Source: Planctomycetota bacterium
GTDB lineage: Bacteria; Planctomycetota; SZUA-567
NCBI GenBank assembly: GCA_031254915.1
Contig: JAIRTL010000009.1
Span: 1 to 12,072 of the forward strand
Length of the DNA: 12,072 nucleotides
Direction of reading: 5' to 3'
This document shows positions 505 through 12,072 of this stretch, piece after piece. The position numbers and the translations under genes were made by a program. Position 1 is the stretch's first letter, and each line of letters starts with the position of its first letter. The notes under the pieces were generated by a model that had not been told where the DNA came from, did not search any database, and worked only from the letters and a program-made list of their open reading frames with translations.

Positions 505-2088
505 ATGCCAACCGACGAGGAACTCGATCTGTTGCAGTCCGGAAAACGCTTTCCCCCCAGGAATCCGAAAAAGGGCAAATGGGCCAGGAAGGCGATAAAG
601 ACGATGATTATGGGAACGGCACTGGCGTTCGTCGTCGCCCTCCTCGTCTTTGTCGGCCTGTTCATATGGTACGGCTGCCGGATCGAGCCGGAAGGCGACC
701 AGATCGCCATCCTGATCCGCAAAACAGGCGAGGACCTCAAGGCCAACGAAATCATCTCCACCCGCGACGGGCAGAAAGGGATCAAGCTCGAAACCCTCCC
801 CGCCGGTCGCCACTTCTACAACCCGTACGACTGGGACTGGCAGCTCGCGACCGTCACCAACATCCCGGCCGGCCGCCTCGGCGTGGTGACGCGCCTGTAC
901 GGGGACGAACTCCCCGAGGGCGAGATCATCGCGCCCCCCGGGTTCAAGGGGATCGTCGAGGATATTCTTCGCCCCGGCAAGTACAGGATCAACCCGTACG
1001 CCGAACGGGTCGAAGTGTTCGACGCGATCACAATCCGTCCCGGTCATGTCGGCGTCGTCGCCAACCTCGCCGGCAGGGATCCCCTGCACAGCGATCTTCC
1101 CCCGGAAATGAAAAACGTCTTTATCGTCGGCGAAGGCGTCAAGGGGGTGCAGGACAGGACGCTGGGCCCGGGGACGTATTATCTCAACCCCTATCTCCAT
1201 TCGGTCGTGGAGGTGAACCTCCAGAGCCAACGCTTCGCCCTTCAGGGCGAGGACGCCATCTCCTTCCTCACCCAGGACGGCTTCACCGTCGTGGTCGAGG
1301 GGACGCTTGAATTCGCGATCACCCGCGACAGGGCGCCGCAACTGACCAACCAGGTCGGCGACATGGACGACATTCTCAAGAAGATCGTCCTTCCGAAGGC
1401 GCGCGGCTTTTCGCGGATCGAGGGAAGCAAGCACCCGGCGATCGACTTCATCGTCGGCGAAACGCGGCAGGAATTCCAGAACCGGCTTGAGCAGAACCTG
1501 ATCGCCCAATGCGCGCGCTGGGGCATCGACATCCGCTCCATGCTGATCCGGAACATCACTCCGCCCGCCGAGGTGACGGCGATCATCCGCGAGCGCGAGG
1601 TCGCGCTCCAGAACCAGAAGAAGATCGAGCAGCAGATCGAACAGGCGCGGTCGCAGGCGGAACTGACCCGCCAGGAGATGCTTGCCGTCCAGAACCGGGA
1701 AAAGGTGGAGTCGGAGACGGCGGCGATCCGCGCCCGCATCCAGGCGGAACAGGAGCAATCGGTGAAGATCACCTCGAGCATGCGCGAACTCGAGGTCGCG
1801 AAGCTCGAGGCGGAGGCGGCGAAGCTCCAGGCCGACGCCATCATGATCCGGGCCGAAGCCGACCGCGACGTGGTGAAAATGCGGAACACCGCCGAGGCGG
1901 ACGTCGCCAAGGCGATGGTGGACGCGTTCGGCGGCGGCGTGGACCTTGCCCGCTACACGCTCTACAAGAAAACGGCGCCGCTGATCCAGGCGATCGTCTC
2001 CACCGATCGCGCGCCCGGGTTGGGCGGCATTTTCGGTTCGTTCGCGCCGAAGACGCCCGGCGCGGGCGGCGGCGGACAGGGACGCTGA
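505..2088 (+). CDS. Flotillin-like SPFH/band-7 family membrane protein (paralog A): N-terminal TM/hairpin segment, three tandem PG-x-Y-x-NP repeats, SPFH core, long EA-rich coiled coil, Gly-rich C-tail.
   Basis: The 527-aa ORF has a purine-rich SD (GAGGGA) 8 nt upstream of the ATG. A hydrophobic segment MIMGTALAFVVALLVFVGLFIWYG follows a K/R-rich N-terminus. The SPFH-core-like block is FLTQDGFTVVVEGTLEFAI ... IDFIVGETRQEFQNRLEQNL ... GIDIRSMLIRNITPPAEV. The C-terminal heptad-like EA repeats (LEVAKLEAEAAKLQADAIMIRAEADRDV) are typical of flotillin/FloT/YqiK. The antisense 454-aa ORF 394..1758 is a GC artefact. Confidence 0.85.
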   Translation: MPTDEELDLLQSGKRFPPRNPKKGKWARKAIKTMIMGTALAFVVALLVFVGLFIWYGCRIEPEGDQIAILIRKTGEDLKANEIISTRDGQKGIKLETLPAGRHFYNPYDWDWQLATVTNIPAGRLGVVTRLYGDELPEGEIIAPPGFKGIVEDILRPGKYRINPYAERVEVFDAITIRPGHVGVVANLAGRDPLHSDLPPEMKNVFIVGEGVKGVQDRTLGPGTYYLNPYLHSVVEVNLQSQRFALQGEDAISFLTQDGFTVVVEGTLEFAITRDRAPQLTNQVGDMDDILKKIVLPKARGFSRIEGSKHPAIDFIVGETRQEFQNRLEQNLIAQCARWGIDIRSMLIRNITPPAEVTAIIREREVALQNQKKIEQQIEQARSQAELTRQEMLAVQNREKVESETAAIRARIQAEQEQSVKITSSMRELEVAKLEAEAAKLQADAIMIRAEADRDVVKMRNTAEADVAKAMVDAFGGGVDLARYTLYKKTAPLIQAIVSTDRAPGLGGIFGSFAPKTPGAGGGGQGR

Positions 2089-2089
2089 A

Positions 2090-2809
2090 ATGCCGGAGGA
2101 AGCAGGCGCGCCCGGCGATCGCGCGGAAGCGGTCCCCCGCCACCTCCGGATCGACGGCTTCGACGCCTATGTGAAGGCGGACGGAACCGACTACTGGCGG
2201 ATTCTCCGCACATTTTTGCATGGCGGCGTCGAAGCGGAGAATCTGAAGCACAACCGCGGCAAGCGCAAGGTTCACGCGTTCGATTTCGGGGGCAGGCGCT
2301 ACGTCCTCAAGCGCGACCTGATGCGGAGTCTCGGCCTGCGCCACGTTTTTCCCGGCGGCGGCTGGACCTACCACACCAGGATCATGCGCAAGGTCAACCG
2401 GGCGGTCGATCTCGGCTGCCGCGCGACGCCGGACATCTATCTGGTCGCCGAGAGGTGGAAAGGGAGGTTCCGGCAGGAAGCGTTCGTTCTCATGGAATTC
2501 GTCGAGGGAACGATACTGAGGGACGCCGGCGACGCGGGGAATTACCGCGACGCGATCCGCGAGGCGATGCTGGAAATGCACCGGTTCGGCCTCACGCTGT
2601 CGGACGTCAACAGCCGGAATTTCCTGGTCGGTCCGGACGGGGTGAAAGTGATAGACATCGCCTGCCGCTTCCCGGATTTCCTCTCGATCATCAGGGACGG
2701 GCTCAAGGTCAAGGCGCGGTATAACGTGGAATTGCCGGTCACCGGGCTCATGAACCGGTTCTTTGGATTCGCCATAGCGGTTTTTTACACTCTACGCGGG
2801 AAAACATGA
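2090..2809 (+). CDS. Small protein-kinase-like fold protein of the Kdo/WaaP/InaA lipopolysaccharide-kinase (RIO-like) type, embedded between the two SPFH genes.
   Basis: The 239-aa ORF starts 1 nt after the stop of the upstream gene (TGAaATG) and has an AGGGA SD. It has a Gly-rich loop plus Lys (AFDFGGRRYVLKRD) and a hinge-like acidic/hydrophobic motif (FVLMEFVEGTIL). The catalytic-loop-like block GLTLSDVNSRNFLVGPDGVKVIDIA parallels KdkA ICHTDLNAHNILL...LLDFD (D and N conserved, His replaced by Leu). The C-terminal tail GLMNRFFGFAIAVFYTL is hydrophobic. Comparison to KdkA and PF06293 is from memory, not a search. Confidence 0.7.
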   Translation: MPEEAGAPGDRAEAVPRHLRIDGFDAYVKADGTDYWRILRTFLHGGVEAENLKHNRGKRKVHAFDFGGRRYVLKRDLMRSLGLRHVFPGGGWTYHTRIMRKVNRAVDLGCRATPDIYLVAERWKGRFRQEAFVLMEFVEGTILRDAGDAGNYRDAIREAMLEMHRFGLTLSDVNSRNFLVGPDGVKVIDIACRFPDFLSIIRDGLKVKARYNVELPVTGLMNRFFGFAIAVFYTLRGKT

Positions 2810-4674
2810 TGCGCACAAACAACACAAACGGACTGCATGGGGATACGCCGATGAAAGACGCCGACGTCACCGCCATCACCACGGAAAATACGCTGAAAAA
2901 GGGAGGGCCGGGCTTTCTCCGCCGCCGCTTCGGCCTGATCGGCGGCGCGATCGTCGTTCTCGCCGTCCTTTGGGCGATCTGGTCGTGGGGCTTTTGCCGC
3001 TTCTACGTCGGCCCCGGCCAGATGGCGATCATCACGGCGAAGCGCGGCGATCCGCTGGAATCGGGACAGATCCTCGCCAGGCCGGGACAGAAAGGCGTGC
3101 TCGAAGACGTGCTTGGCGAAGGCAGGCACATCTGGAACCCGGTCTTCTACGACTGGGAGATCGTCGACGCCCAATACATTCCGCCGGGGAAGGTCGGCAT
3201 CCTGACCTCGCTCGTCGGCGAAGACCTTCCCCCCGGCGAGTTCCTCGCCGAACCGGGGCAGAAAGGCATCCGCCGGAAAGTCCTCGGTCCGGGCATGTAC
3301 CGCCTGAATCCGCGCGGCTACAGCATCGAGGTCATCGACGCCATGAGCATCCCCATGGGGTTCGCCGGCGTCGTCACCTACCTCAGCAGCGGCGATCTGC
3401 CGGCGAGCGCCTTCGTGAACGACAACGCCGACGAAAAAACCCGCCGCGACATTCTCCAGCCCGGCATCTATTACATCAACCCCCGCGCCCACCGGGTCAA
3501 CGCCGTCGAGGTCGGCGTCAACCAGGTTTCACTTCAGGGGCAGGACGGAGGCATGATCCTCACCAAGAGCGTCACCTTGGACGAAAACAACCTCATGATG
3601 CAGCGGCTGAACCAGAACATCCTCGCCGAACAGCGTCGGCAGCGCGCCGTCTACCAGCAGGACAGGCTGGGCGAGCAAAGCGCCGACCATTCCATCATGG
3701 CGGAAATGATGAACGACCCCGGCGCGCCCGCCAGGGGAATGCTCCGGAAGTCGCTGCCGTCGGCGCAGGCCCCGGGATCGGTCGACGGCCGCGCCATTTC
3801 GCTGGAAAGGGACGTGGCGCCGGCGATCGTCCTCGACCAGTACGTCAACTTCCCCTCCCGGGACGGCTTCGACATCCGGCTCGACATGACGGTCGAGTTC
3901 GAGCTCCGGCCCGAACATCTCGCTTCGATCTACAAGGTGTACGGCGACCTTCCGAGCGTGGTCGACAAGACAATCATGCCGCAGATCCTTTCCATCTCCC
4001 GGAACAAGGGTTCCGCCTACCGCGCCGTCGACTTCATCGCCGGCGAAGGCAGGGAGAAATTCCAGAACGACCTGACCGACACGCTCAAGGAATCGCTCGG
4101 CAAGGAGGACATCACCATCCACAGCGCCCTCATCCGCAACGTCAACGTCCCGGACCAGATTCTCGAACCGCTCCAGGTCGCGTCCCTGTCGCGCGAGACG
4201 GAACTGACCAACCGGGAAAAGCAGAACACCGCCCGCAAACAGGCCGACCTCAACCGGGAAATGTCGCTCATCAAGCAGTTCGGCGAGCAGGTCATGCAGG
4301 AGACGACCAAGCTCAAGGCCGAGATCGACGCCGAGCGCGAAAAGACGGTGGCGATGATCCAGGCGGACACCCTCCGGCGCATGGCGGCGATCGACAGGGA
4401 AACGGCCGGCGTCAGGGCGCAAAAGGTTGTGGCCATCGGCGAGGCGGAAGCCGATGCGCTGCGTCTGATCGAAATGGAACGCGCCATGGGCTTCGGAATG
4501 AAAGTCGCCGCCTTCGGCGCCGAAAGCGAAAATTTCGCGCTCTACGAATTCGCCAACAGCCTCAACCCGGAAATGCGCATCAACCTGCTCCACGCCGGCG
4601 AGGGAACCCTGTGGACGGACCTGCAGCGCGCCGGCGTCGGCGACCTCGGCGGATCGACGCTGCTGCGCGAATGA
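2806..4674 (+). CDS. Flotillin-like SPFH/band-7 family membrane protein (paralog B): same architecture as paralog A plus an ~85-aa Q/R-rich insertion before the SPFH core.
   Basis: The 622-aa ORF start ATGATG overlaps the kinase stop (ATGA), indicating translational coupling. An alternative start is M16 (nt 2851). A TM-like segment GLIGGAIVVLAVLWAIWSWGF follows KKGG..RRR. Repeats PGQKGVLEDVLGEGRHIWNP.., PGQKGIRRKVLGPGMYRLNP.., LQPGIYYINP.. mirror paralog A. The SPFH core FPSRDGFDIRLDMTVEFEL...VDFIAGEGREKFQNDL...ITIHSALIRNVNVPDQI aligns to paralog A residue-for-residue. The C-terminal coiled coil is EA-rich. The alternate-frame R/P-rich 583-aa ORF 2970..4721 and the antisense 400-aa ORF are artefacts. 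Confidence 0.85.
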   Translation: MMRTNNTNGLHGDTPMKDADVTAITTENTLKKGGPGFLRRRFGLIGGAIVVLAVLWAIWSWGFCRFYVGPGQMAIITAKRGDPLESGQILARPGQKGVLEDVLGEGRHIWNPVFYDWEIVDAQYIPPGKVGILTSLVGEDLPPGEFLAEPGQKGIRRKVLGPGMYRLNPRGYSIEVIDAMSIPMGFAGVVTYLSSGDLPASAFVNDNADEKTRRDILQPGIYYINPRAHRVNAVEVGVNQVSLQGQDGGMILTKSVTLDENNLMMQRLNQNILAEQRRQRAVYQQDRLGEQSADHSIMAEMMNDPGAPARGMLRKSLPSAQAPGSVDGRAISLERDVAPAIVLDQYVNFPSRDGFDIRLDMTVEFELRPEHLASIYKVYGDLPSVVDKTIMPQILSISRNKGSAYRAVDFIAGEGREKFQNDLTDTLKESLGKEDITIHSALIRNVNVPDQILEPLQVASLSRETELTNREKQNTARKQADLNREMSLIKQFGEQVMQETTKLKAEIDAEREKTVAMIQADTLRRMAAIDRETAGVRAQKVVAIGEAEADALRLIEMERAMGFGMKVAAFGAESENFALYEFANSLNPEMRINLLHAGEGTLWTDLQRAGVGDLGGSTLLRE

Positions 4675-5287: not shown

Positions 5288-6046
5288 ATGCCCGGCCGGC
5301 CGGAGCTGCCCCCAATCATCCCGGGCGTCTACCTCGTCGGTACGCCCATCGGCAACCTCGAGGACATCACCCTGCGCGCGCTCCGGGTGCTTGAATCCGC
5401 CAACGTCCTCGCGGCCGAGGACACCCGCGTCACCCGCAAACTTTTTCAAATCCACCAATTGCAACCACCGAAAACGATCTACGCCTGCAACGCCCACACG
5501 GAGGACAAGGTGGCGGAGCGCCTTGTCCGCCACGCGCAAGCGGGAAAAATCGTCGCCTACGCCTCGGACGCCGGCATGCCCGGCATTTCCGACCCCGGTT
5601 GCCGCATCGCCCGGGCGGCCGCGGCGGCGGGCGCGCATCTCGAGGTCATTCCCGGACCTAGCGCGGTTACGACTGCCATCGCCGCCTCCGGTATCAACGC
5701 CGCGTCCTTCACCTTCCTCGGCTTTCCCTCGCGCCGGAACGGACGCCTGCGGGAAGAACTGCGCCGCCACGGCGCGATGCTCCCGGCACTGGTTTTCTAT
5801 GAATCGCCGCATCGGTTGTCGCGACTGCTCGAAATCGCCAGGGAAATGCTCGGCGACGATCGCAATGCTGCAATATGTCTCGAATTGACCAAGAAATTCG
5901 AGCGTTTTTTCCGAGGAAAGTTGAGCGATGTGAGCGGAATTTTTCGCGATGCGGAAGTCCGTGGCGAAGCGGTGGTTGTGATTGCGGGCAAACGAAAATC
6001 GGCACGCGATTTTGCCGAAGGCGACGAAATACTGATTGACAATTAA
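5288..6046 (+). CDS. rsmI: 16S rRNA (cytidine1402-2'-O)-methyltransferase RsmI (tetrapyrrole-methylase fold)
   Basis: The 252-aa ORF starts 3 nt after the tag stop. The N-terminal motif GVYLVGTPIGNLEDITLRALRVLESANVLAAEDTRVT and the block ASDAGMPGISDPG...IPGPSAVTTAIAASG are characteristic of RsmI. Confidence 0.9.
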   Translation: MPGRPELPPIIPGVYLVGTPIGNLEDITLRALRVLESANVLAAEDTRVTRKLFQIHQLQPPKTIYACNAHTEDKVAERLVRHAQAGKIVAYASDAGMPGISDPGCRIARAAAAAGAHLEVIPGPSAVTTAIAASGINAASFTFLGFPSRRNGRLREELRRHGAMLPALVFYESPHRLSRLLEIAREMLGDDRNAAICLELTKKFERFFRGKLSDVSGIFRDAEVRGEAVVVIAGKRKSARDFAEGDEILIDN

Positions 6047-6063
6047 AACCGGATCCATACCAT
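6036..6063 (+). promoter_or_regulatory. Sigma70-like promoter candidate for the downstream small gene: -35 TTGACA (6036-6041, inside the last codons of rsmI), 16-bp spacer, -10-like TACCAT (6058-6063).
   Basis: Hexamers read directly from the sequence. The -10 lies inside the 26-bp palindrome. Promoter consensus for this unknown lineage is assumed to be E. coli-like. Confidence 0.3.
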
Positions 6064-6077
6064 ATATGGTATGGATC
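6052..6077. promoter_or_regulatory. 26-bp perfect palindrome GATCCATACCATATATGGTATGGATC. Candidate repressor operator with an NrdR-box-like AT core. Alternatively an RNA hairpin between rsmI and the downstream ORF.
   Basis: Perfect dyad symmetry verified base by base (6052-6064 pairs with 6065-6077). It sits 6 nt after the rsmI stop, overlaps the putative -10, and ends 20 nt before the start codon of the NrdD-like ORF. The central 16 bp ATACCATATATGGTAT matches about 12 of 16 positions of the NrdR-box consensus acaCwAtATaTwGtgt as I recall it. Confidence 0.4.
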
Positions 6078-6096
6078 GTTGTGAAAGGGACGAAAT

Positions 6097-6420
6097 ATGC
6101 AACTTATGGCGTTTTACGAACACGTGGAGAAGCACCCGGAACTGGAAGGCTTGGGGATCGAGTCCGGTTGTGTCGACAAGAGCGCGGGGGTGATTGTCAA
6201 AAATACCCAAAACAATCTCATGACCCGTCTGCCGGTCGCGGCGATCGAAGCGGCTGACTGGGATGTGATCGAGGATGTGCTCCTTGGCAAACGCGAACCG
6301 CAAGTGTTGCAGCACATGACCCGTGTCGTCGGTTACTTCAGCCGGGTCGAAAACTGGAACAAGTCCAAGGTCGGCGAACTCAGGGACCGCCACAAAGGCG
6401 ATTACTCCGTCGCCGGCTAG
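6097..6420 (+). CDS. Stand-alone glycyl-radical-domain protein homologous to the C-terminus of anaerobic (class III) ribonucleotide reductase NrdD. Possible spare-part or autonomous glycyl radical cofactor analogous to GrcA/YfiD.
   Basis: The 107-aa ORF has an SD AAAGGGA 7-13 nt upstream. The C-terminal motif TRVVGYFSRVENWNKSKVGELRDRHKG matches the NrdD glycyl-radical signature (T-R-V/I-C/V-G-Y ... N-x-G/S-K ... E ... D-R). The same RVxGY motif is shared with PFL and GrcA. There is no catalytic barrel or Zn-ribbon Cys cluster, so it is not a full NrdD. Confidence 0.65.
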   Translation: MQLMAFYEHVEKHPELEGLGIESGCVDKSAGVIVKNTQNNLMTRLPVAAIEAADWDVIEDVLLGKREPQVLQHMTRVVGYFSRVENWNKSKVGELRDRHKGDYSVAG

Positions 6421-6735: not shown

Positions 6736-8994
6736 TCAGCCGCCAATGAGGCGTTCGAGTTGGATTCTTGCGTTACGGAGCGCTTCGGCGGGCGTTTCTT
6801 TTCCCGAGACGGCGGCGTAGACCGCGCCGCCGAGGATGTTTTCGAACACCCGTTCCTCCACTTTTCCCCCGGTCGTGACTTTCGAGATGTTTCGTTCCCG
6901 GCTTTTGGCGAAGCTTTCCACCGATTTCGGCAGCCACGGATACAGGGCGCAGAGTTCGGAGTTGTGATAGACCTTGTTCGCGGGCGGCGCGCCGCCGAGT
7001 ATGGCGAGCGGGATCACGAGGTCTTGGTCGCAGGTCCAGCCGATGAAATCGAGCGCCGAATCGCGCGACCGGCTTTCGCGGTTGACCCCTAAGGTCCAGC
7101 CGCCAAGCATCGGCTTGCCGCCGGGGATGATGTCGTACCCGATGCGCCCGACCACCTTCGAGACGCGCCGGTCGGCGAGCGACGACACGTGCGCGAGGAA
7201 GAGGATCATCATCGCGGCCTGGCCGTCGCCGAAAAGCGCGGCCTGTTCATCCCACCAGAAGTCCTTCGAACCGGGCGGCGCGTAGCGGTAGCTTTCGGCG
7301 TAATTGGCGAGCGCGGCTTCCGCCTCGCGGCTGGCGAGGGAGTCGAGCATGTTTCCAGCCCCGAACGCGCCTTCGTGGAACGAGAGGAAGCGGGGCAGGA
7401 ATTCGCACACCGCGCCGTTCGGGTATTGTCCGCCCAGGGTGGTTCCGTATTCGGTCGGCGAATCGGGATTGAGCGATCTGGTGAAAAACGCCGCGATCTG
7501 ATTGAATTCGTGCCAGTTCCTGGGTGCGCGCAGTTCGTAACGGTAGCGCTTCCGGAAAGCGAACTTGAGGTGCGGGTCGTCGAACAGGTCCTTCCGGTAG
7601 AAAAGAATCTGCGCGCCGAAGAGGAACGGCACGGTATAGCATTTCCCCCCGTGCCGGCAATAGGCGTCGAGCACGCCGGGCAGCCAGGCCGAGGCGAGGC
7701 CGGGGCGGCTGTCGAGCCAGGCGTCAAGCTGGTGGAGAAGGCCGTCCTCGGCGGCTTCTCCGAGCCAGGGCTGGTCGACCTGGAAAATATCGTATTGGGA
7801 GCGCCGGGCCGGATCGCGCAGCAGTTCGCCGATCTCCACGACCGAGCGCTTGTCGATCTCCACCCTGACGCCGGAATTCTTCTGGAACGCGGGAAGCAGC
7901 GCCTCCACGGCCGAGCAGGCGCCGCCGGCGAGCATGAGCGCGCGCAGCACCCTGCCCCGTCCGCGCAGCCTTACCGATTTCCCGATCGTCGGGCCCTGGT
8001 CGGCGTCGAAGCGGGCGTTGTCGACGATCCGCCGCCTGTTCTTCGCGTCGTCGCTCCCGGAAAGCATGCCCAGAAGCAGCGCGGCCGCGCTTTCGCCAAG
8101 CTCCATGGCGTCGCGGCGCAACACCCTCGCCCCCACCGGCGACGCCGGCGCCCAGGATTCGATGCCTAGGCACACAAAGGCGGGCCCGTTGTCGAGTTCG
8201 AGCATCTTCACCGCCTGCCGCGCTCCGGCGAGGAGCTGGCTGGAGGTGGTGATGATTACGTCCGGCGGCGGCGCGACGCCGAGCCTGGAGACAAGTGCGC
8301 TAAAGGCGCTTTCCTTGTTGAAGTTCGTTTCGACCACCAGCCAGTCCCTCGGCGTCCCGCCAAAACGGTCGCCAAGGCCGTCGAGAAAACCGGCGGCATA
8401 GCCGGCTTCGCTCGAATTCTCGCGCGGTCCGGCGAGAAGCAGGGGATTGCGGCAGCCCTCAGCCAGCAATTGGCGCACAAGGTCGCGCATATGCTTTTCG
8501 CCGTCGAAGCCGACGAACGGGAAGACGCGGCGATGCGGCTCGCGCTCGACGAAAACAAACGGCGTGCCGTTGTCGTAGACGCTCTGGAACATCGAGGCGG
8601 AATCGGGCTGGCAGGTGACGATGACGATGCCTTCGGCGTTCTGCTTCACGAACTGCCCTATCGCGCGCTGCTCGCGCGCCTGAATCTCCGAAGTGGTGCA
8701 GAGCTGGACGACATAGCCGTTTTCGCTCAATACCTGGTTGACGCCGGCGTAAATGCCGGCGAACGTGGCGTCCTGAACCGACGGCAATACGACGCCGATG
8801 CACCTGGTCTTTCTCGCCTTGCCGCCGGAACGGGCGGGAAAATGCGCGCGGTAGCCGGTCTTGCGAATCGCCGCCTGAACGCGTTGGACCATGGACAAGC
8901 TGACCCGGCGATCGCCCTTGAGAACATTCGAGACCGTGCCGACAGATACGCCGGCCGCCTCCGCAACGTCCTTCATCGTCGCCTGAAGCGCCAT
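6736..8994 (-). CDS. Fusion transcriptional regulator: LacI-family HTH + LacI-type (PBP type I) sugar-binding domain + a complete family-1 extracellular solute-binding-protein (MalE-like, PBP type II) domain.
   Basis: The long minus-strand ORF is 770 aa from the first in-frame Met at 9048. The likely true start is MALQATMKDV (nt 8994) or MKDVAEAAG (nt 8976), giving about 750 aa. HTH: MKDVAEAAGVSVGTVSNVLKGDRRVSLSMVQRVQAAIRKTGYRAH, a canonical LacI/PurR motif. Residues about 80-340 have the LacI ligand-domain pattern (IGVVLPSVQDATFAGIYAGV...YVVQLCTT...IVIVTC). Residues about 370-770 show SBP_bac_1 features (FQKNSGVRVEID..., YDIFQVDQPWLGE, YTVPFLFGAQILFYRKDLF, WWDEQAALFGDGQAAMMI, GGWTLGVNRES). 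There is no signal peptide, so it is cytoplasmic. The overlapping plus-strand ORFs (e.g. 7189..8169, 8470..9435) are artefacts. Confidence 0.8.
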   Translation of the reverse strand: MALQATMKDVAEAAGVSVGTVSNVLKGDRRVSLSMVQRVQAAIRKTGYRAHFPARSGGKARKTRCIGVVLPSVQDATFAGIYAGVNQVLSENGYVVQLCTTSEIQAREQRAIGQFVKQNAEGIVIVTCQPDSASMFQSVYDNGTPFVFVEREPHRRVFPFVGFDGEKHMRDLVRQLLAEGCRNPLLLAGPRENSSEAGYAAGFLDGLGDRFGGTPRDWLVVETNFNKESAFSALVSRLGVAPPPDVIITTSSQLLAGARQAVKMLELDNGPAFVCLGIESWAPASPVGARVLRRDAMELGESAAALLLGMLSGSDDAKNRRRIVDNARFDADQGPTIGKSVRLRGRGRVLRALMLAGGACSAVEALLPAFQKNSGVRVEIDKRSVVEIGELLRDPARRSQYDIFQVDQPWLGEAAEDGLLHQLDAWLDSRPGLASAWLPGVLDAYCRHGGKCYTVPFLFGAQILFYRKDLFDDPHLKFAFRKRYRYELRAPRNWHEFNQIAAFFTRSLNPDSPTEYGTTLGGQYPNGAVCEFLPRFLSFHEGAFGAGNMLDSLASREAEAALANYAESYRYAPPGSKDFWWDEQAALFGDGQAAMMILFLAHVSSLADRRVSKVVGRIGYDIIPGGKPMLGGWTLGVNRESRSRDSALDFIGWTCDQDLVIPLAILGGAPPANKVYHNSELCALYPWLPKSVESFAKSRERNISKVTTGGKVEERVFENILGGAVYAAVSGKETPAEALRNARIQLERLIGG

Positions 8995-9254
8995 CACTCC
9001 GCCCCCGTCCAAAAATCCGGCCCCGACCCCGGCTCCATGCTTTCGCACCCGCCCTCACCCCGGATCGGCGTTTTCAGCCGGGAGGACGGATGGAGCGATA
9101 CCGCTTCCAGCCAATTAGTGCTTTTTTGCGTCCTTGCAGCTTCCCGCGTTCCACTTCGCGCCATTGTTTTCGAGGGCGTTGGACCAGTCGAGGGAACGGC
9201 AACTTTCGACCGGAAAAGGCATGCGCCCGTTTGTTGTCGCAATCCCCCGCGCTT

Positions 9255-9277
9255 CCCGGGCCGCTGCGCGGCCCGGG
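9255..9277. other. Very stable GC hairpin CCCGGGCCGC-tgc-GCGGCCCGGG (10-bp stem, 3-nt loop) inside the 440-bp spacer between the transporter operon and the regulator gene.
   Basis: Perfect inverted repeat 9255-9264 / 9268-9277, with no adjacent U-tract. A second, longer-range inverted repeat GAGAACGCGG (9334-9343) / CCGCGTTCTC (9396-9405) lies between it and the binding-protein gene stop. Confidence 0.3.
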
Positions 9278-9431
9278 GCGGTTGCGGAGGGGAAATCGCG
9301 TTGTTCGCTCGCTTCCAGCGCACAGTCAATTTGGAGAACGCGGATAACGCCCGCAGGGTACCGCGGGACAATGGGGAAATCGACTATGCCCAAAACCGCG
9401 TTCTCAATCCCGACTATCCACTGGAGCATTT

Positions 9432-10403
9432 TTAGAAGCGCGGCGGGTTCTTGTACATGGCGCTGGTATCCTTGTCCAGGATACGGACGCCGGTGTCGAT
9501 GCCGGCGACGGGTACGTGACCGAAGCCTTCGAACATCGAGGGGATTTCGGTGGGGTGGTGCGCGGCATAGGCGAGCATCATGGCCTGGTAGCCCATGAGG
9601 TAAGGGTTCTGGCCGACGGTGCCCTTGATTTCGCCCTTTTCGATGAGTTCGATGACGGGGAGGCCGAAGTCGAAGGCCATGATCTGGACCTTGCCCTGGA
9701 GGCCGAGGGAGCGGACGGCGGCGGCCGCGCCGGGGCCGGGGTTGCCGTGGGCGCCGAAGATGCCGTTGATTTCCTTGTTGGCCTGGAGCATGGCGGTGAG
9801 CTGCGTTTCCGCCTTGGCGACGTCGCCTTCGTCGTTCACGACCGCGACGATCTGGGCGCCGGGCGCGACTTCCTTGAGGCCGGCCTCAAAGCCGTCCTGG
9901 CGGTTCTTGAGGTGGTCCGGGCCGGGGAAGGTGCAGATGCCGATGCGGGCGTCGTTGCCGAGCCATTCACCCATCGCCTTGCCCGCTTCGTAGCCGGCCT
10001 GGTAGTTGTTGGTGCCGACGAAGCACAGGCGGTTGGAGGCGGGAGCGTCGGAGTCGAAGGTGATGACCGGGATCTTGGCGCGGATGGCGCGGTTGATCGC
10101 CGGGACCAGGGTGTTGGCTTCGCCGGCGGTGACGATGACGCCATCGATCTTCTTGGCGACGAGCTGTTCGATGGCGCGCGCTTCGAGGGTGGCGTCCCAT
10201 TCGGCCGGGCCGTGGAGTTCGGTCTTGACGTGGGGGCCGATCGCCGCGGCGGCGTCGATCATGCCGGCATACGCCCAGTTGAAGAATTCGGAGCCCTTGA
10301 GGAACACGACCATGCCGTAGGTCTCGGTCGGACGCTCTTCGGCGCATGCCGGGGCGGCGAACGCCGCGAGCACGACCAATGCCGCTACCAGAAGTTTCTT
10401 CAT
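9432..10403 (-). CDS. Sugar ABC transporter periplasmic substrate-binding protein (RbsB-like, ribose/xylose/arabinose PBP type I family) with N-terminal signal peptide.
   Basis: The real start is MKKLLVAALVVLAAFAAPACAEE (ATG at 10403), preceded by a perfect AGGAGG 7 nt upstream (plus-strand CCTCCT 10412-10417). The 5' extension of the track ORF to 10949 is Arg-rich junk. The mature domain MVVFLKGSEFFNWAYAGMIDAA...IDGVIVTAGEANTLVPAINRAIRAKIPVITFDSD...GTNNYQAGYEAGKAMGEWL is typical RbsB-type. The AAPAC sequence is not a canonical lipobox, so it is probably SPase I-cleaved. Confidence 0.9.
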   Translation of the reverse strand: MKKLLVAALVVLAAFAAPACAEERPTETYGMVVFLKGSEFFNWAYAGMIDAAAAIGPHVKTELHGPAEWDATLEARAIEQLVAKKIDGVIVTAGEANTLVPAINRAIRAKIPVITFDSDAPASNRLCFVGTNNYQAGYEAGKAMGEWLGNDARIGICTFPGPDHLKNRQDGFEAGLKEVAPGAQIVAVVNDEGDVAKAETQLTAMLQANKEINGIFGAHGNPGPGAAAAVRSLGLQGKVQIMAFDFGLPVIELIEKGEIKGTVGQNPYLMGYQAMMLAYAAHHPTEIPSMFEGFGHVPVAGIDTGVRILDKDTSAMYKNPPRF

Positions 10404-10474
10404 TGCATAATCCTCCTGCATCCATTCACAAGCCGCGCCACACGCGAGGCGAAAAGTATTTCTCCGGTCCGCCG

Positions 10475-11434
10475 TCATTTCCGCCGGCGGTTGAACACGA
10501 ACTCGCCCACGAGCACCGCCAGAAGAAGCATGCCGCCGTTGACGATGTCCTGCCAGTAAGTGGAGATGCCGGTCATGACGAAGGAGCCGTTCACGACGGC
10601 GAGGAAAAGCACGCCCAGAAGCGTCGACAGAATGGTGCCGCTGCCGCCGGAGAGGCTGGCGCCGCCGACGGCGACCGAGGTGATGACCTTCATCTCGGCG
10701 TTCTGCCCGAACGAATTGTTGGCGGCGCCGTATTGCGCGGCGACGATCACGCCGGCGACGCCGGCGAGAAGCGAGCACAGACCGTAGACGAAATAGCGCA
10801 TGCGTTCCACCCGGATGCCGCTCAGGCGGGCGGCGCGCTCGTTGCCGCCGATGAAGTAGACCTGGCGCACGTAGCGGTTGCAGCCGAGGAACACGGCGGC
10901 GAGGACGGCGAGGACGGCGAAGAAATACATGGGGATGGGGATTTCCCATAGGTACCCCTGCCCCATCTCCTGGAAGGGGTCGGGGAAGCCGAACAGGGTG
11001 CGGCCGTCGGTTATGGCCAGGTTGAAGCCTTTGAGGGTGAGCATCATCGCCATGGTGACGATGAACGGATGCACCCTGAGCAGGTTGATCAGTTTGGCGT
11101 TGACGAGCCCGATCGCGATCGAGGCGACGAGGGCGATCGCGACCGCGAGTCCCCAGTGGAGCCCGGCGTTCATGCCCATTGCCGCCGCTATCGCCGCCAT
11201 CGGCAGAACGGCGCTGATCGAAAGGTCGATGCCGCCCGTGATGATGACGAGCGTCATGCCCAGAGACATGATCGCTTCCGGGAGGAAGGACATGAGCGTC
11301 ACCTCGATATTGAACGGCGACAGGAATTCCCCGTAACGCGACGCCATGACGACGATGATGACGGCGTTGGCGAGGATGAGGCCGATGTACTGGAGAGGCA
11401 GACGCTGGAACAGCGATTTGTCAGTTGGCCGCAT
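10475..11434 (-). CDS. Sugar ABC transporter permease (RbsC/AraH-type, BPD_transp_2 family)
   Basis: The 319-aa polytopic membrane protein carries the motif MTLVIITGGIDLSISAV and the family-typical block GGNERAARLSGIRVERMRYFVYGLCSLLAGVAGVI. Its start ATG (11434) overlaps the upstream ATPase stop by 14 nt, indicating translational coupling. Confidence 0.9.
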   Translation of the reverse strand: MRPTDKSLFQRLPLQYIGLILANAVIIVVMASRYGEFLSPFNIEVTLMSFLPEAIMSLGMTLVIITGGIDLSISAVLPMAAIAAAMGMNAGLHWGLAVAIALVASIAIGLVNAKLINLLRVHPFIVTMAMMLTLKGFNLAITDGRTLFGFPDPFQEMGQGYLWEIPIPMYFFAVLAVLAAVFLGCNRYVRQVYFIGGNERAARLSGIRVERMRYFVYGLCSLLAGVAGVIVAAQYGAANNSFGQNAEMKVITSVAVGGASLSGGSGTILSTLLGVLFLAVVNGSFVMTGISTYWQDIVNGGMLLLAVLVGEFVFNRRRK

Positions 11435-12072
11435 AGCGCATCACCTTGGTCTGGGAAAGATTGTCGTTCTGCAAGTCCGCGGACACGCCGCCGTTCCGGA
11501 ACACGAGCACCCGGTCGGAGAGTCCCAACACCTCGGGGAGTTCAGACGAGATGACGATGACGCCGACGCCGCTTTCGGCGAGCTGTCTCAGGTACTGGTG
11601 GATTTTCACTTTCGCGCCGATGTCGACGCCGCGCGTCGGCTCGTCGGCGACGAGGATGGTCGGCTTCGCCGCCAGCCATTTGGCGAGCATCGCCTTTTGC
11701 TGGTTGCCGCCGGACAGGTTGATGATGTTGAGGGTGTCGTTTCGGGGACGAATGTCCAACAACTCGAGGAAATCCTCCGAAACCGCCCTGACCTTGTCGA
11801 AATCGAGGAACTGGAGCTTCGACGAATAGGCGGGCAGGGACGACGAGGCGATGTTCCGCCGCACCGACATGGTGAGGAACAGCCCGAACAGCTTTCTGTC
11901 CTCGGACAGGTAGCACACGCCCTGGCGGATCGCGTCCCCCGGACCGCGAATATCGACTTCGCGGCCCCGCAGGACGATTTTGCCCGAAGACGGCCGTTCG
12001 GCGCCGAAGACGGCGCGCGCCGTTTCCGTCCGGCCGGAGCCGACGAGGCCGGCGAAGCCGAGGATCTCGCCT
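11421..12072 (-). CDS. Sugar ABC transporter ATP-binding protein, RbsA/MglA-like with two NBDs. Only the C-terminal second NBD lies in the window (5' end beyond the window edge).
   Basis: Reading frame is open to the window edge. Second-NBD Walker A: GEILGFAGLVGSGRTE. Signature LSGGNQQK, Walker B ILVADEPTRGVD, then VIVISSELPEVLGLSDRVLVF and a C-terminal ...MRYAAN stop at 11421. The track ORF 11421..11918 is just the Met-initiated tail of this frame. Confidence 0.85.
   Translation of the reverse strand, partial: GEILGFAGLVGSGRTETARAVFGAERPSSGKIVLRGREVDIRGPGDAIRQGVCYLSEDRKLFGLFLTMSVRRNIASSSLPAYSSKLQFLDFDKVRAVSEDFLELLDIRPRNDTLNIINLSGGNQQKAMLAKWLAAKPTILVADEPTRGVDIGAKVKIHQYLRQLAESGVGVIVISSELPEVLGLSDRVLVFRNGGVSADLQNDNLSQTKVMRYAAN

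Follow-up and report, generated by a model that had tools for sequence, protein, structure and literature searches.

The small open reading frame and its control region

The window (the whole stretch of DNA that was analysed, 12,072 nt of a Planctomycetota bacterium, obtained as a 12-kb metagenomic contig) carries a stand-alone open reading frame for a protein of 107 amino acids at positions 6097 to 6420, where the ATG start and the sequence quoted in an earlier sequence-only reading were both found. The gene and the features predicted around it are listed below.

5288-6046, upstream gene: TP_methylase-family protein of 252 aa, which fits rsmI
6036-6063, + strand: sigma-70-like promoter, TTGACA (6036-6041), 16 nt, TACCAT (6058-6063), 10 of 12 consensus positions
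6052-6077, no strand assigned: perfect 26-bp palindrome, GATCCATACCATA followed by TATGGTATGGATC (13+13 nt, 100% complementary), candidate operator
6083-6090, + strand: Shine-Dalgarno-like GAAAGGGA, 6 nt 5' of the ATG, read from the sequence
6097-6420, + strand: coding sequence of the 107-aa stand-alone NrdD-type glycyl-radical protein, ATG start, stop codon included
6097-6291, + strand: N-terminal domain, aa 1-65, presumed docking domain with the motif F..(V/I)E.H..LE
6292-6405, + strand: glycyl-radical domain, aa 66-103, REPQVLQHMTRVVGYFSRVENWNKSKVGELRDRHKGDY, matched by Pfam NRDD and near-invariant in the family
6331-6333, + strand: codon GGT for Gly79, predicted radical glycine in RVVG79Y, an invariant column

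The sequence-only reading had named the upstream gene rsmI; its product does belong to the TP_methylase family, a match that stands at the level of the family and fits rsmI. The other genes of the window encode two Band_7 proteins, a WaaY-like kinase, a methyladenine glycosylase, a LacI/solute-binding fusion protein and sugar ABC transporter components. The two SPFH/Band_7 paralogues (527 and 622 aa) lie on either side of the WaaY-like kinase (505-4674, + strand), and a Band_7 gene pair is also located 4-6 kb from the small gene in Brocadia loci (13717-15680 in locus L086), possibly by coincidence. The fusion protein (770 aa, 6736-9048, - strand) combines a LacI HTH, a LacI-type periplasmic-binding fold and SBP_bac_1, and its gene adjoins the sugar ABC transporter genes at 9432-11918 (- strand). 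By tblastn, no similarity to NrdD, NrdG or NrdR was found elsewhere in the window, in agreement with the earlier statements that the catalytic domain is absent from it and that no NrdD-like remnant lies upstream. An Rfam search of the window and two further loci gave no match, and so no riboswitch or leader.

The radical glycines of the class III RNR NrdD are Gly681 in E. coli and Gly580 in phage T4. In the 107-aa protein, the Pfam model PF13597 (NRDD) covers aa 68-100 alone, which correspond to profile positions 532-561 of 562 (E = 1.3e-5; 24.6 bits, just below the gathering score of 26.2), and the NCBIfam NrdD model TIGR02487 covers aa 71-100 (positions 551-580 of 581; 21.1 bits against a cut-off of 326). 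PF01228 (Gly_radical) gave no match in the same protein even at E <= 10. Because NRDD matches and PF01228 does not at this threshold, the Gly loop is of the RNR type and not of the PFL type. Over 31 aa, the loop is 84% identical to that of a full-length Planctomycetia NrdD (locus L073), which together with the NRDD and TIGR02487 matches argues that the similarity is not due to chance. The NrdD-type C-terminal motif claimed from the letters alone is therefore borne out by the profile searches that had been proposed along with it, and the glycyl-radical match is real. The glycyl-radical motif RxxGY is present as TRVVG79YFSR and is invariant across the family; in the alignment, Gly79 pairs with the glycine of TRIVGY in 120 full-length NrdDs, and all residues conserved in NrdD loops are also conserved in the small-protein loop. 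The protein has neither the barrel nor the finger-loop cysteine, only NRDD positions 532-561 being matched, and it has no four-cysteine Zn ribbon, its single cysteine (C25) being non-conserved.

An alignment of 36 homologues contains 25 invariant columns, Gly79 among them, and dN/dS was 0.12-0.20 in comparison with seven relatives for which dS was unsaturated. The open reading frame at 6097-6420 is a real gene under purifying selection.

TTGACA-16-TACCAT is the only promoter-like site between positions 5900 and 6800 (mean of 0.3 in shuffled sequences), and its -35 hexamer is contained in the 3'-terminal part of the methylase gene that precedes it. The core of the palindrome (6057-6072, ATACCATATATGGTAT) looks like an NrdR box, in a position that overlaps the -10 hexamer. 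With 12 of 16 positions, it is the only match of at least 12/16 to the NrdR-box consensus ACACWATATATWGTGT in the 12-kb window. The palindrome was also considered as a terminator. It scores as such on the minus strand only, where no gene reads into it, and on the plus strand there is no U-tract and the predicted start site lies inside the palindrome. Since the terminator reading fails on both strands, the palindrome is read as an operator.

The NrdR consensus, reportedly set out by Rodionov and Gelfand in 2005, consists of tandem 16-bp palindromic boxes about 31-32 bp apart. Homologous boxes were detected upstream of the small gene in 25 of 46 related loci. Over the 46 loci, the 200 bp in front of the gene contain 3.5 boxes per kb, against 0.053 per kb in the remainder of these loci, about a 65-fold difference, and tandem boxes 30-32 bp apart, about 126-fold enriched, are present in 21 of them. 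In the relatives, box 1 typically holds TTGACA and box 2 covers the -10 hexamer. The window and its closest relative (L005) keep box 2 only, the upstream box of the window having decayed to at most 9/16 with TTGACA retained. Tandem boxes are also found upstream of nrdR in four operons with a split nrdD, described below (L052, L061, L066 and L072). From these boxes we infer that NrdR may control the small gene; it is a candidate regulator only, as no clear tandem boxes of the same consensus were found in the Planctomycetota nrdR-nrdD operons examined (L085, L088, L090-L093 and L073). The solitary Planctomycetota small gene carries tandem boxes, yet clear ones are lacking from these nrdR-nrdD operons of the same phylum; the nrd operons of L085 and L073 have one common single box, GCCCAAGATGT(T/A)GTG.

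Family extent and the N-terminal domain

A search of 5.8 billion proteins returned 167 homologues of the window protein. The best 120 of the 167 are 91-127 aa long, 55-100% identical and mostly from Planctomycetota MAGs. The closest relative (JAISXA01) has 84% identity, and window-clade homologues are also encoded on the complete chromosomes OZ223208.1, OY780932.1, OY781533.1, OY763323.1 and OY782760.1. Homologues are named "anaerobic ribonucleoside-triphosphate reductase" or "hypothetical protein" at NCBI, and the current annotation of the family's proteins of about 100 aa is misleading. Searching 1.84 billion cluster representatives with a profile yielded 817 matches at E <= 1e-3 and 490 at E <= 1e-10; nearly all of the best 150 representatives are 74-225 aa long and were matched over their full length. 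Furthermore, a scan of one genome per GTDB species revealed 351 relatives. Among their 80 best loci, 79 encode a family protein that has no NrdD catalytic domain, the sole exception being the genuine full-length NrdD of L073, and the open frame is at most 183 aa in 76. The small protein belongs to an uncurated family of proteins of about 100-130 aa that is distributed over several anaerobic phyla. No model for it exists in Pfam or NCBIfam, no family match was found in phage genomes, and the literature that could be searched describes neither a spare part for NrdD nor a class III RNR in split form, in keeping with the earlier reading, which knew of no characterised family.

Several longer frames were inspected as possible fusions. 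The 1089-aa frame that runs into the small gene in L029 (321-3590) has no Pfam domain and is an artefact of GC-rich DNA, and the longer frames in L045 and L047 contain no added domain. An 802-aa protein (P0226) combines a family member with a C-terminal 3'-5' exonuclease and DNA_pol_A domain; it reflects either genuine gene fusion or read-through in gene calling, with a mobile element or a phage as a possible source. The versions in Ca. Scalindua are longer, at about 148-153 aa (9749-10195 in L078 and 9734-10195 in L081), with an extra N-terminal segment and a tail of about 20 aa past the Gly loop.

The N-domain of the window protein is predicted by AF2 to have the topology alpha-beta-beta-beta-alpha-alpha, with pLDDT of about 90 over aa 1-60, and the confidence of the Gly loop is low. 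The same N-domain topology was predicted for a Brocadia homologue. Foldseek searches of both AF2 models against the PDB gave nothing at E <= 0.001, and no relative was found among PDB sequences, whether the single protein or the family profile was the query. When the loop was removed, the N-domains of the window clade and of the split-operon proteins were matched by hhalign at 94.3% (E = 1e-7), and those of the split-operon and stress-operon proteins at 98.2% (E = 3.5e-14). The Brocadiales N-domain alone has no similarity to the window clade that hhalign could detect. The full-length profiles of the two groups match at 99.8% over 106 columns and have the motif F..(V/I)E.H..LE in common, and the Brocadiales small proteins are about 40% identical to the window protein. 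The N-domain is presumed to be a docking domain.

Genomic contexts and coexistence with full-length NrdD

The small gene is found in three contexts, namely split operons, operons of oxidative or nitrosative stress, and solitary positions. The eight split operons (L052, L056, L061, L065, L066, L069, L072 and L076) belong to Elusimicrobiota, Ca. Auribacterota, UBP3 and other MAGs. Their order is nrdR (Zn_ribbon_NrdR plus ATP-cone), nrdD, small gene and nrdG2, with an NrdD of about 780-806 aa, a small protein of 98-108 aa and a radical SAM protein whose 163.8 bits exceed the NrdG2 equivalog cut-off of 131. In every case nrdD and the small gene are adjacent, about 20-70 bp apart. The NrdD of these operons covers PF13597 only to position 528-534 of 562 and either ends 6-10 residues past the Zn ribbon (e.g. 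...CSYCGSANVPGVMRVE directly before the stop) or has an unrelated tail, while the full-length control NrdD of L073 runs on as ...CGHCESDNVYGMTRIVGYFSRVNNWNKSKLGELKDRHKGNYSVAG. The missing positions 532-561 are supplied by the small protein, and the Zn ribbon is retained on the truncated NrdD. The arrangement is not a frameshift artefact, because the small gene lies in another frame and contains a domain of about 60 aa that is absent from NrdD; it recurs in eight MAGs. Judged from their sequences, the split operons argue that the Gly loop of the family can serve NrdD in trans.

In three loci (L053, L055 and L058), the small gene stands between rrf2 and a gene for a desulfoferrodoxin-type superoxide reductase with a rubredoxin-like domain, with gaps of 12-31 bp or an overlap. 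In two other loci (L067 and L068), the small gene shares 4 bp with the gene of a hybrid-cluster protein (Prismane, 548-576 bits). Additionally, ferredoxin-domain proteins and NifS are encoded near it in L062, L063 and L083, and a Usp gene belongs to its context in Brocadia. In the window clade (n = 46) and in Brocadiales the small gene is solitary, with unrelated neighbours. No nrd gene was found within 7-10 kb of it in the 46 window-clade loci or in the Brocadiales loci, and an adjacent pair of loop-less NrdD and nrdG is absent from the window and from these 46 loci.

Two Planctomycetota operons (L085, 12582-14055, and L090, 8617-10041) have the order nrdR, nrdD, cupin, a gene for a CxxC redoxin of 93-97 aa (NrdH/glutaredoxin-like) and nrdG2. 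The 97-aa gene between nrdD and nrdG in L085 had been considered as a family member, but it encodes the CxxC redoxin instead. This redoxin is a candidate reductant for that type of NrdD.

The loop TRIVGY is intact in all of the best 120 relatives of Planctomycetia NrdD (120/120), which include proteins from Phycisphaerae and from the anammox genera Brocadia and Jettenia. A search that started from a Brocadiia small protein yielded 398 homologues. In the complete Ca. Brocadia genome CP091279.1 (4,046,273 bp), the small gene (P0461) is located near 1.59 Mb, and an operon of nrdR, nrdD (P0342, 815 aa, intact TRIVGY loop) and nrdG2 near 2.76 Mb, about 1.2 Mb away. In this genome, the unlinked small gene together with a full-length NrdD is the arrangement of GrcA and PFL. 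In Ca. Jettenia (3,970,402 bp), the small protein (P0427) is apparently also present alongside a full-length NrdD (P0364). A divergent truncated NrdD paralogue may exist in Brocadia.

A candidate spare part for class III RNR

Autonomous glycyl radical cofactors are represented by GrcA/YfiD of E. coli and Y06I of phage T4 (IPR011140, PF01228). Like GrcA/YfiD, the family described here consists of small stand-alone proteins in which the C-terminal half reproduces the radical domain of a large glycyl-radical enzyme, and in Brocadia the gene is encoded away from the looped full-length enzyme. By analogy, the small protein may also be activated by the activase of its parent enzyme and then replace an O2-cleaved loop. 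However, its loop is of the NrdD type and not of the PFL type, so that its partner would be an RNR; its N-terminal half is predicted to be a folded alpha/beta domain, whereas that of GrcA is disordered (PMC8683613); and the family also appears as a true subunit in split operons, a role that is not known for GrcA.

The small protein resembles the C-terminus of NrdD itself in the pattern TR(I/V)VGY(F/Y)SR..NWNKSK.GEL.DR..G.Y, which is 84-90% identical to Planctomycetota NrdDs, but it is without the ATP-cone, the catalytic barrel and the Zn ribbon and has 107 aa, compared with about 800. A second parallel is the split class II RNR NrdJa/NrdJb of Pseudomonas aeruginosa, in which the C-terminal module is a separate polypeptide encoded by an adjacent gene (PMC9669993). 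The split operons of Elusimicrobiota and Auribacterota follow this pattern. The two systems differ in RNR class, and the NrdJ module is an IscU-like domain with a Zn finger that serves re-reduction and does not carry the radical site; in contrast to NrdJa/NrdJb, the small gene of the window is unlinked.

Spare parts have been validated for PFL only, and the question is open for other glycyl-radical enzymes (Andorfer et al., 2021, and a 2026 review; PMC8683613, PMC13450708). Glycyl-radical enzymes are cut by O2 at the glycine that bears the radical, and in class III RNR the radical is quenched irreversibly by NO (PMC8683613, PMC13450708, bioRxiv 10.1101/2025.02.23.639758). The inactivation by NO fits the contexts with hybrid-cluster protein and Rrf2 and the presence of the family in anammox bacteria, which produce NO as an intermediate.

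Taken with the analogy to GrcA, these observations lead us to regard the window protein as a glycyl-radical module that serves class III RNR in trans, with a GrcA-like spare part as the likeliest form, at a probability of roughly 0.55. Transcription of the small gene would start at its own promoter and be controlled through an NrdR-type operator, and the NrdG2 activase would place the radical on Gly79. The loop would then enter the barrel of an NrdD catalytic subunit that has no working loop, with the N-domain giving the binding energy that is normally provided by the covalent link. In this manner, an NrdD whose loop has been destroyed by O2 (through cleavage of the backbone at that glycine) or by NO could be restored. 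A trans-acting module is favoured by the split operons, where a separate protein supplies the loop, by the homology of the N-domains across the window clade, the split operons and the stress operons, by a loop that is NrdD-like and similar to that of Planctomycetota NrdDs, and by the NrdR-like boxes upstream in the relatives and the window. A spare part in particular is favoured by the solitary position of the gene, given that the NrdDs of Planctomycetota have full length and that split genes are always closely linked, by the Brocadia copy that coexists with a full-length NrdD, and by the stress-operon contexts elsewhere in the family (rrf2 with superoxide reductase, hybrid-cluster protein and Usp). 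The earlier proposal of either an RNR spare part or the radical domain of a split NrdD thus finds support at the family level, in the Brocadia coexistence and in the split operons.

Several points speak against the spare part. The coexistence evidence comes from Brocadiales, whose N-domain, taken alone, is not detectably similar in sequence to that of the window clade. NrdR-type control would predict co-expression with RNR and not induction by stress, and would fit an obligate subunit equally well. Besides, the modelled N-domain appears folded whereas the N-terminus of GrcA is disordered, and the Gly loop was modelled by AF2 with low confidence.

The window protein could also be the obligate radical subunit of a split class III RNR whose loop-less NrdD is encoded elsewhere in the organism, which we consider possible although rather unlikely. 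Exactly this split, with a truncated catalytic gene, is seen in the eight related loci. Window-clade and split-operon proteins also have homologous N-domains, and boxes of the NrdR type point to regulation in common with RNR genes. However, the split genes always stand about 20-70 bp apart, whereas nrdD was never found within 7-10 kb in the 46 window-clade loci, all 120 Planctomycetota-type NrdDs inspected have a loop of their own, and Brocadia, apparently like Jettenia, has both a full-length NrdD and the small gene.

It is improbable that the protein acts as a regulator or decoy, that is, as a substrate that titrates NrdG, as a radical store or as a module for another partner such as AmmeMemoRadiSam, in spite of the fact that solitary small genes yield no direct information on a partner. 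A neighbour of this kind does exist, as the small gene of Brocadia is convergent with a TIGR04337 radical SAM gene (343 bits) that is related to the activases of glycyl-radical enzymes. The AmmeMemoRadiSam neighbourhood was noted at 8983-9993 (- strand) in L086 and L087, at 5260-6621 in L021 and in six Brocadiales loci. The distance to AmmeMemoSam_B is about 1 kb or less (median 898 bp) in these six loci and 4.6 kb in L021. The link is nevertheless limited to one order and one distant case and may be inherited synteny; the small-protein loop is almost identical to the NrdD loop, and the split operons argue for a function with NrdD and NrdG2. The sub-threshold Pfam score and the mere 30 matched residues might point to a dead 3' fragment of a broken nrdD or to a frame that arose by chance in GC-rich DNA, but this reading is refuted by hundreds of full-length homologues of constant size with low dN/dS, by a conserved and confidently folded N-domain that is absent from NrdD, and by the gene's own predicted promoter, candidate operator and ribosome-binding site with no NrdD-like sequence upstream.

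For the family as a whole, there is about an even chance that it represents the first spare-part system outside PFL, repairing class III RNR after damage by O2 or NO in many anaerobic phyla including the anammox bacteria, and serving as a permanent subunit of a split RNR in some lineages. The family is a concrete and widespread spare-part candidate for an enzyme on which anaerobic DNA synthesis depends. If this is true, the small protein would be a minimal substrate for studying activation by NrdG and a natural system for the docking of a radical domain into the RNR barrel, and it may explain how strict anaerobes and anammox bacteria synthesise dNTPs after transient exposure to O2 or NO.
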